Position numbers and translations under genes: made by a program
Source of the DNA: Clostridium sp. UBA3947
GTDB lineage: Bacteria; Bacillota; Clostridia; Clostridiales; Clostridiaceae
Direction: 5' to 3'
Assembly: GCA_002385545.1 (NCBI GenBank)
Contig: DGDR01000038.1
Coordinates: 1,793-65,792, forward strand
DNA length: 64,000 nucleotides
The notes under the pieces: model-generated
What the model was told of the DNA's origin: nothing
Seen by the model: the letters and a program-made list of their open reading frames with translations, nothing else
The model's database searches: none
In this document: piece by piece, positions 32,707 through 33,828 of the stretch
How the letters are laid out: every line of letters begins with the position of its first letter
Position numbering within the stretch: position 1 is the stretch's first letter

Positions 32707-32715
32707 GTGAGGATA

Positions 32716-33828
32716 ATGAATTTAAAGGAACTAATAATTAACAAACTGCCACAATTTAAGGATATAAGACGTACTCTTCACAATAATGCAGAGCTTTCTA
32801 ATCAGGAATTCAAAACCAGTAAAATCATTCAAAATTATTTAGCTTCCCTAGGTTTAAGCTATAAAAGCTTAGCAAATACTGGTGTAGTAGCTGTACTAAA
32901 CCAAGATACAGAATGTATTGGAATTAGAGCAGACATGGATGCTCTCCCCATTAATGGAGTGTTCCATGGCTGCGGTCATGATTATCATATGGCTATTTTG
33001 CTTGGTGTAGCTACTATACTAAAGGATTTGAATATTAATAAATGCATAAAATTTATATTCCAGCCAGCAGAAGAGGACGGTGGCGGAGCCTTACCTATGA
33101 TAAATGAAGGGGTGTTAGAAAATCCAAAGGTCACCAGGATGATTGGCTACCATGTTTGGCCAGGTCTTGAATTAGGAGCTATAGAAGCCACCTCAGGACC
33201 CTCCATGGGATCCGTTGATGATTTTAGAATACTTTTTAAGGGTAAGGGCGGTCATGGAGCTATGCCAGATCTATGTGTTAATCCATTAAAGCCAGCAGTA
33301 GAGTTTTCCTATACCCTGCAAAATTATAAAGCTTCACAAGCCTCTACTCCCTATGTGCTAAATTTAACCTCAATTAATTGCGGTAATGCTCCTAATGTAG
33401 TTTCTGATGAAGCTTTGGTGATGGGAACCCTTAGAACCTTTGATGATTCCTTAAGGAATCACTTAAAAAACGAAATAAGAAAAGCCGCCGCAGAGTATGC
33501 TACAAAGTATGGTTGTACTCATTCTGTAACCTTCGAAGATGAGTACCCTCCTTTGATTAATGATGCTAGCATTACAAAAGAATTTATAGATATAACTTCA
33601 AAGCTCCTAGGAAAGGAAAAGGTTAAACCCTTAATACCTACCTTTGCAGGAGAAGACTTCTCATATTTTGCACAAGCGGTGCCTTCTGTCCATTTTAGAT
33701 TAGGTATCAAGGCTGATGGGCTTGGAGAACTACCACTTCATTCTAGCAACTTTACCGCCCATGAAGATGTGATATTTTACGGAGTTTATATTATATGTAA
33801 TTATATTTTATCACTAAGTAGATCATAG
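32716..33828 (+). CDS. M20D amidohydrolase (candidate N-acetylornithine or N-acetyl-DAP deacetylase)
   Basis: RADMDAL, HGCGHD, FQPAEE, GGHGAMP, GEDFSY, LH; ATG at 32716, in frame with the argD stop. Confidence 0.85.
   Translation: [370 protein letters not shown]

Follow-up and report, generated by a model that had tools for sequence, protein, structure and literature searches.

The window, that is, the whole stretch of 64,000 nucleotides that was analysed, carries the arginine-biosynthesis genes argB and argD followed directly by a gene for an M20D amidohydrolase, with argC placed divergently from argB. The genes and features of this locus are the following:

29438-30484, minus strand: argC, N-acetyl-gamma-glutamyl-phosphate reductase (TIGR01850, 433 bits against a cut-off of 234), divergent from argB
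29411-29385: terminator-like hairpin downstream of argC, from a terminator scan
30600-30627, plus strand: sigma-70-like promoter in the argC-argB intergenic region (TTGAAT, 16 nt, TGnTATAAT, with an extended -10); a consensus match, the count of which does not exceed that in shuffled sequences
30670-31530, plus strand: argB, acetylglutamate kinase (TIGR00761, 267 bits against a cut-off of 151)
31543-32706, plus strand: argD, acetylornithine aminotransferase (TIGR00707, 495 bits against a cut-off of 410), with its stop codon TGA at 32704-32706
32716-33828 (GTG alternative at 32707), plus strand: loop-deleted M20D amidohydrolase, candidate N-acetylornithine deacetylase (TIGR01891, 287 bits; PF01546 and PF07687)
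32950-32955, plus strand: junction I79/N80 of a 12-residue deletion, just N-terminal of HGCGHD, located by alignment with the genome's own paralogue, 1XMB, 1YSJ, 4EWT and the loop of W3Y6L2
33824-33855, plus strand: intrinsic-terminator-like hairpin of 14 pairs, then TTTTTGTGCT, right at the M20D stop and closing the argB-argD-M20D unit

The argB-argD-M20D unit and the frame of its last junction

The original prediction had described argB, argD and the M20 gene as one terminated unit. This description is valid, since a promoter-like site (30600-30627) precedes the compact gene group and a strong terminator, a hairpin with a T-run (33824-33855), ends it. A search for ARG boxes in the argC-argB spacer returned a single match, with two mismatches, at 30577-30590; the window-wide count of such matches did not exceed that in shuffled sequences.

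On the 3' side of the unit lies a separate gene (33916-35841, plus strand) for a protein of 641 aa with a Bmp/PnrA-like C-terminus, the N-terminal part of which gave no family match. The second gene beyond the arginine-biosynthesis operon encodes an arginase (35962-36861, plus strand; TIGR01229, 238 bits), a placement that sets the synthesis and the breakdown of arginine and ornithine side by side. The same placement beyond the arg operon is kept in Clostridium sp. N3C and in a related MAG.

It had further been pointed out that the M20 gene is in frame with argD, with only a TGA between them. Literally this is true: beyond the TGA at 32704-32706, and in its frame, come first the GTG at 32707 and then, 9 nt past the argD stop, the conserved ATG at 32716, and read-through of the TGA would give a single ArgD-M20D fusion protein. 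As a functional cue, however, the frame is incidental. Among 16 arg-linked loci it is shared by only three, those of G000 (the genome of the window), G001 and G003, and in G003 a further in-frame TAA stands between the two genes; in the remaining 13 loci the frames are different, and argD and the M20D gene either overlap at stop and start or are separated by up to about 110 nt. By chance alone, one junction in three is expected to be in frame. The suggested search for argD-M20 fusions in other genomes came back empty, no fusion of an aminotransferase (Aminotran_3) with M20D being present among homologues of 649-2000 aa. Read-through, which we regard as having practically no likelihood, was rejected as a conserved feature, because the frame is not conserved and no fused homologues appeared in that search; the frame relation is a matter of chance, and what is conserved is the tight linkage.

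In four loci of relatives (L029, L032, L033 and L036) the argD-M20D spacer, 70-110 nt in length, contains a long inverted repeat (in L033, aattaacctgttgaa...ttcaacaggttaatt), which might act as a terminator or attenuator inside the unit.

The M20D protein and its shortened loop

Counted from the conserved ATG (32716), the M20D product has 370 aa; the longest open reading frame, which begins with the GTG at 32707, gives 373 aa. The protein matches the NCBIfam model for amidohydrolases of the M20D subfamily (TIGR01891) with 286.7 bits against a cut-off of 153.75, as well as both Pfam domains, Peptidase_M20 (PF01546) and M20_dimer (PF07687); the nearest named NCBIfam models are carboxypeptidase CpsA and generic amidohydrolases. 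In an alignment of 48 sequences, residues C86, H88, E119/E120, H146 and H342, together with R240 of the lid domain, are invariant in the M20D clade. The first five positions are presumably the metal ligands, judging by what is known of the family; these and the lid arginine align with the corresponding residues of 1YSJ and 4EWT. An AF2 model built on the same alignment reached a pLDDT of 92.7 and a pTM of 0.90, and a Foldseek comparison with the PDB gave TM values of 0.92 to 4EWT and 0.83 to 1YSJ, displaying the two-domain fold with catalytic and dimerisation domains. With these conserved residues and this model, the product looks like a working enzyme and not a decayed one.

Four characterised M20D aminoacylases and amidohydrolases of known structure, YxeP of B. 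subtilis (1YSJ), the S. aureus protein 4EWT, ILL2 of Arabidopsis (1XMB) and AgaA of Corynebacterium (6SLF), were recovered by Foldseek with TMq values of 0.78-0.92 at 25-29% identity. The metal ligands and the lid-domain arginine are conserved between them and the protein studied here; they differ from it in that all have the 12-residue loop before HACGHD, are 390-420 aa long and are not encoded in an arg operon.

The absence of this loop, announced in the original prediction as the lack of an insert of roughly 13 residues before HACGHD, was borne out, the alignment giving a length of 12. The alignment set the protein against the paralogue in its own genome (C50; 34% identity, 400 aa) and against the orthologues of eleven relatives, and the missing residues fall between I79 and N80 (window positions 32952/32953), directly before H(G/A)CGHD. 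All three of the closest solved structures (ILL2 1XMB, YxeP 1YSJ and S. aureus 4EWT) possess the loop. The canonical loop, some 16 residues that separate DALP from HACGHD, is a family feature from which 12 residues are lost in this protein; the loss is a variation inside the M20D family and no ground for exclusion from it. As the gap is common to every member of the orthologous clade that was examined, whether adjacent to arg genes or not, the deletion is a marker of the clade. It carries no weight as a cue to function, being found also in the unlinked members and being absent from the validated Veillonella enzyme discussed below. The deleted loop adjoins the Cys-bridged metal site, which makes it plausible that its loss affects the substrate pocket. 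The M20D loop is not discussed in a review of the field (PMC11511702).

The deacetylase step in the genome and in related Clostridiaceae

The assembly to which the window belongs comprises 3.02 Mb in 247 contigs and is 100% complete by marker genes. A profile search of this genome gave zero matches to ArgJ (TIGR00120) and none above the cut-off to ArgE (TIGR01892); the best match to the latter, a PepT-like gene, scored 75.7 bits against 297.7, and was followed by an M20D paralogue and a PepD-like gene. These same three, the M20D paralogue, the PepT-like and the PepD-like protein, are the M20 proteins that the genome encodes besides the candidate, and tblastn counted two M20D genes in total. 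Among the matches of the candidate itself there was no ArgE model, and the DapE/ArgE model TIGR01910 gave 39 bits against a cut-off of 217.6. The remaining pathway is present, with ornithine carbamoyltransferase (argF) at 384 bits and argH at 590 bits. ArgJ is absent also from three other genomes of the same genus, one of them closed (G002). The lack of argJ and argE, initially remarked on for the gene cluster, therefore holds for the genome as a whole.

DapL had been named as an alternative. The gene product would then be an N-acetyl-LL-diaminopimelate deacetylase of the DapL/YkuR type, acting in the acetylase branch of lysine/DAP synthesis; DapL enzymes do belong to M20D, and one record, by automatic annotation, so names a 54%-identical homologue of Clostridium acetireducens. 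The same genome, however, contains no tetrahydrodipicolinate N-acetyltransferase (the best DapH match has 58.5 bits against a cut-off of 231.75) and encodes an LL-DAP aminotransferase (TIGR03542, 535.6 bits against 364.7), which serves a route without acylated intermediates. With DAP made in this way an N-acetyl-DAP deacetylase would be left without a substrate, and the gene, moreover, sits in an arg and not in a dap operon. The DapL identity, which we consider most improbable, was rejected on account of the missing DapH and the LL-DAP aminotransferase.

The distribution of the candidate was followed in a 300-genome sample of its GTDB family; 168 of these genomes have argC, with ArgJ lacking in 54 of the 168 and present in 114. 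The clade was delimited among the 40 nearest relatives, where a sharp break separates orthologues (identity of at least 47%, E <= 1e-115) from paralogues (at most 41%). Members of the clade occur in 38 of the 54 genomes with argC and no ArgJ (70%), as against 11 of the 114 with both (10%), raw co-occurrence counts that overstate the association, since the genomes are related and not independent; the pattern across genera is a stronger argument. A further 13 carriers are genomes in which argC was not found. All seven of the argC-bearing, ArgJ-lacking genomes among the 40 nearest relatives carry an orthologue. The clade spans 22 GTDB genera of one clostridial family, and the order argB-argD-M20D with a divergent argC was seen in loci from at least 12 GTDB genera; argB-argD-M20D is likewise found in Clostridium sp. 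N3C, with 87% identity, and in Clostridium oryzae DSM 28571. A wider contig search turned up only a small number of close relatives; most of its matches were generic M20D proteins, 33-40% identical. In a maximum-likelihood gene tree the arg-linked members are scattered through the whole clade, and the majority of the unlinked members still reside in genomes with argC and without ArgJ.

Since 16 genomes with argC and without ArgJ have no member of the clade, this enzyme is not the sole solution to the missing step. Five of these genomes (four of genus g42 and one of g36) were checked; the only M20D genes that they contain are paralogues of canonical type, with tblastn identities of 31-34% and no linkage to arg genes.

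Contrasts inside single genera agree with the association between the clade and a missing ArgJ. G171 has no ArgJ and carries argB-argD-M20D followed by a gene for a GNAT acetyltransferase, whereas ArgJ is present in 11 of the 15 genomes of its genus (g3), most of which has argC-argJ. Genus g16, which possesses ArgJ, has the most divergent clade member (47-48% identity), located beside a DUF554 gene. The member in G016, which has ArgJ, is a pseudogene split by stop codons and situated after a gene for a DcuC/AbgT-family transporter (L015); in G022, in which no argC was found, the clade member follows a gene of the same transporter family (L012), whereas the gene before it in G007 and G013 is that for pyruvate carboxylase. 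The two transporter-linked cases are a hint that the enzyme may, in some lineages, serve as an aminoacylase linked to uptake.

A candidate companion acetyltransferase and a proposed linear arginine pathway

The protein would act at the same step as ArgE (M20A, TIGR01892) and ArgJ (TIGR00120), the release of ornithine from N-acetylornithine, and has the M20 two-domain, two-metal fold in common with ArgE. It differs from both in belonging to neither family, its metal site being of the Cys-bridged M20D type. It differs from ArgJ also in the fate of the acetyl group, which ArgJ recycles onto glutamate and a hydrolase wastes. A hydrolytic deacetylase therefore calls for a separate N-acetylglutamate synthase. 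Classical ArgA was not found in the genome of the window, the matches to TIGR01890 being argB itself and weakly scoring GNAT proteins; it was through these weak matches of the ArgA acetyltransferase domain, to two small GNATs, that a candidate emerged. It is encoded at C208:53-598 (L021:53-601), on a contig other than that of the arg cluster, and has 182 aa; its small paralogue in the same genome lies at C70:13772-14260 (L020:1345-1965, minus strand).

The C208 protein is 61-62% identical to a GNAT of about 175 aa encoded directly after argC in G132, G256 and G292. The GNAT that follows the M20D gene in G171 shows 48% identity to the G132/G256 protein and 50% to that of the window's genome. 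Of the 54 genomes with argC and no ArgJ in the family sample, 47 encode this GNAT; of those with ArgJ only one does, a fragmentary assembly. It adjoins argC in about 20 genomes, among them G002 of the window's own genus. GNAT and M20D clade occur together in 36 genomes; GNAT without the clade was seen in 11, all of genus g42 (G132, G256, G097 and eight others; L050, L051), where argC is followed by the GNAT gene and neither ArgJ nor a loop-deleted M20D is present. The M20D paralogues of G132, G256 and G097 are canonical and unlinked to arg genes. Four of the 13 clade-bearing genomes without a detected argC likewise have the GNAT, so argC may have been missed there. The small GNAT probably supplies N-acetylglutamate. 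It resembles the short single-domain GNAT synthases of the S-NAGS type in its size (about 170-180 aa), its single PF00583 domain, its weak match to the ArgA acetyltransferase domain and its linkage to argC. It differs from them in matching no curated NAGS model and, in the genome of the window, in lying outside the arg cluster.

The M20D aminoacylase gene of Geobacillus stearothermophilus was reportedly first cloned through complementation of E. coli argE. An M20D-like gene co-localised with arg genes was described in Veillonella and Dialister by Ashniev et al. 2022 (PMC9026213), who named it ArgA3, and Price and colleagues (GapMind 2026, PMC13759103) reassigned ArgA3 as an alternative N-acetylornithine deacetylase. 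The M20D protein of Veillonella, W3Y6L2, rescues an E. coli argE::kan mutant, only anaerobically, and its close homologues are reported from only 11 genera (PMC13759103). The loop-deleted clostridial clade is mentioned in neither of these papers (PMC9026213, PMC13759103). W3Y6L2 resembles the protein of the window in being an M20D enzyme with the same proposed reaction, co-localised with arg genes in a strict anaerobe that has neither ArgE nor ArgJ; in both cases N-acetylglutamate synthase is non-classical or missing. The two differ in the loop, which is deleted in the Clostridiaceae clade and canonical in W3Y6L2, as compared over a 111-nt segment of the synthetic gene (from the preprint supplement) that translates to 37 residues. 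Given this intact loop, and 11 genera as against 22, the loop-deleted clade of Clostridiaceae probably constitutes a lineage distinct from W3Y6L2. Since an M20D substitute has already been proven in Veillonella, the idea itself is known, and the Clostridium case would carry it over to a further lineage of enzymes.

From this material the following scheme can be proposed. The product of 32716-33828, a dinuclear-metal M20D amidohydrolase co-transcribed with argB and argD, would hydrolyse N2-acetyl-L-ornithine, the product of ArgD, to ornithine and acetate; N-acetylglutamate would come from the small stand-alone GNAT (C208:53-598), encoded in many relatives directly after argC; and arginine synthesis would thereby run as a linear pathway in a genome without ArgJ or classical ArgE. 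The gene order kept across many genera, the enrichment of the clade in genomes with argC and without ArgJ, and the published precedent of an argE-complementing M20D enzyme together support the original prediction of a non-orthologous acetylornithine deacetylase recruited from M20D. We consider it likely, on these comparative grounds, that the M20D gene encodes the N-acetylornithine deacetylase of this organism, as part of a linear pathway in which a stand-alone GNAT is the synthase.

A different explanation is that the enzyme is a broad-specificity N-acyl-amino-acid aminoacylase or carboxypeptidase that serves scavenging and has no dedicated role in arginine synthesis, its linkage to argD being loose or reflecting a secondary use. 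The names of its nearest NCBIfam models, CpsA and generic amidohydrolases, agree with this, as does the occurrence of the clade in genomes in which argC was not found and beside genes for DcuC/AbgT-like transporters, pyruvate carboxylase and DUF554; 11 carriers possess ArgJ as well, and the loop deletion is common to arg-linked and unlinked members. Against it stand the preference of the clade for genomes with argC and without ArgJ, given above, the tight operon linkage across at least 12 genera and the presence of most unlinked members, too, in such genomes; the genome of the window, moreover, has no other deacetylase candidate. The explanation is on balance an unlikely one, and it overlaps with the preferred reading, since an enzyme of broad specificity might nevertheless act as the physiological ArgE. 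Specificity is the main reservation about the preferred reading: as some members of the clade occur beside transporters or where the pathway is absent, the ancestral, and perhaps the current, activity may be that of a broader aminoacylase that also serves arginine synthesis.

Returning to the reading of a dedicated deacetylase, a more far-reaching version of it is possible, and is offered here tentatively: that in 13 or more genera of Clostridiaceae a module of two genes has taken the place of ArgJ, repeatedly and even inside single genera. One gene would encode a short GNAT N-acetylglutamate synthase of a new family, the other an M20D deacetylase with a trimmed structure, the recruitment of which was independent of that in Veillonella; the shortened loop would reshape the acyl/side-chain pocket for N-acetylornithine.

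With ArgJ, ArgE and ArgA all seemingly missing, many Clostridium genomes come out of automatic pathway tools as arginine auxotrophs; in the present sample this concerns 54 of the 168 argC-bearing genomes. Should the proposed assignments be true, the M20D clade at the deacetylase step and the argC-linked GNAT at the synthase step would close two gaps in most of those genomes, and a second, structurally distinct M20D lineage would join the newly recognised alternative ArgE class. For the specialist this would be a useful extension and not a surprise. The contrasts within genera, ArgJ in some genomes and GNAT with M20D in others, offer natural material on the reversion from a cyclic to a linear pathway. 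A cluster in G119 (L052; G119:C22, 3600-9240) holds both solutions side by side, with the M20D gene, argD and argB in one direction (M20D<-argD<-argB) and argC->argJ in the other, and may represent an intermediate state in the exchange of ArgJ and M20D.
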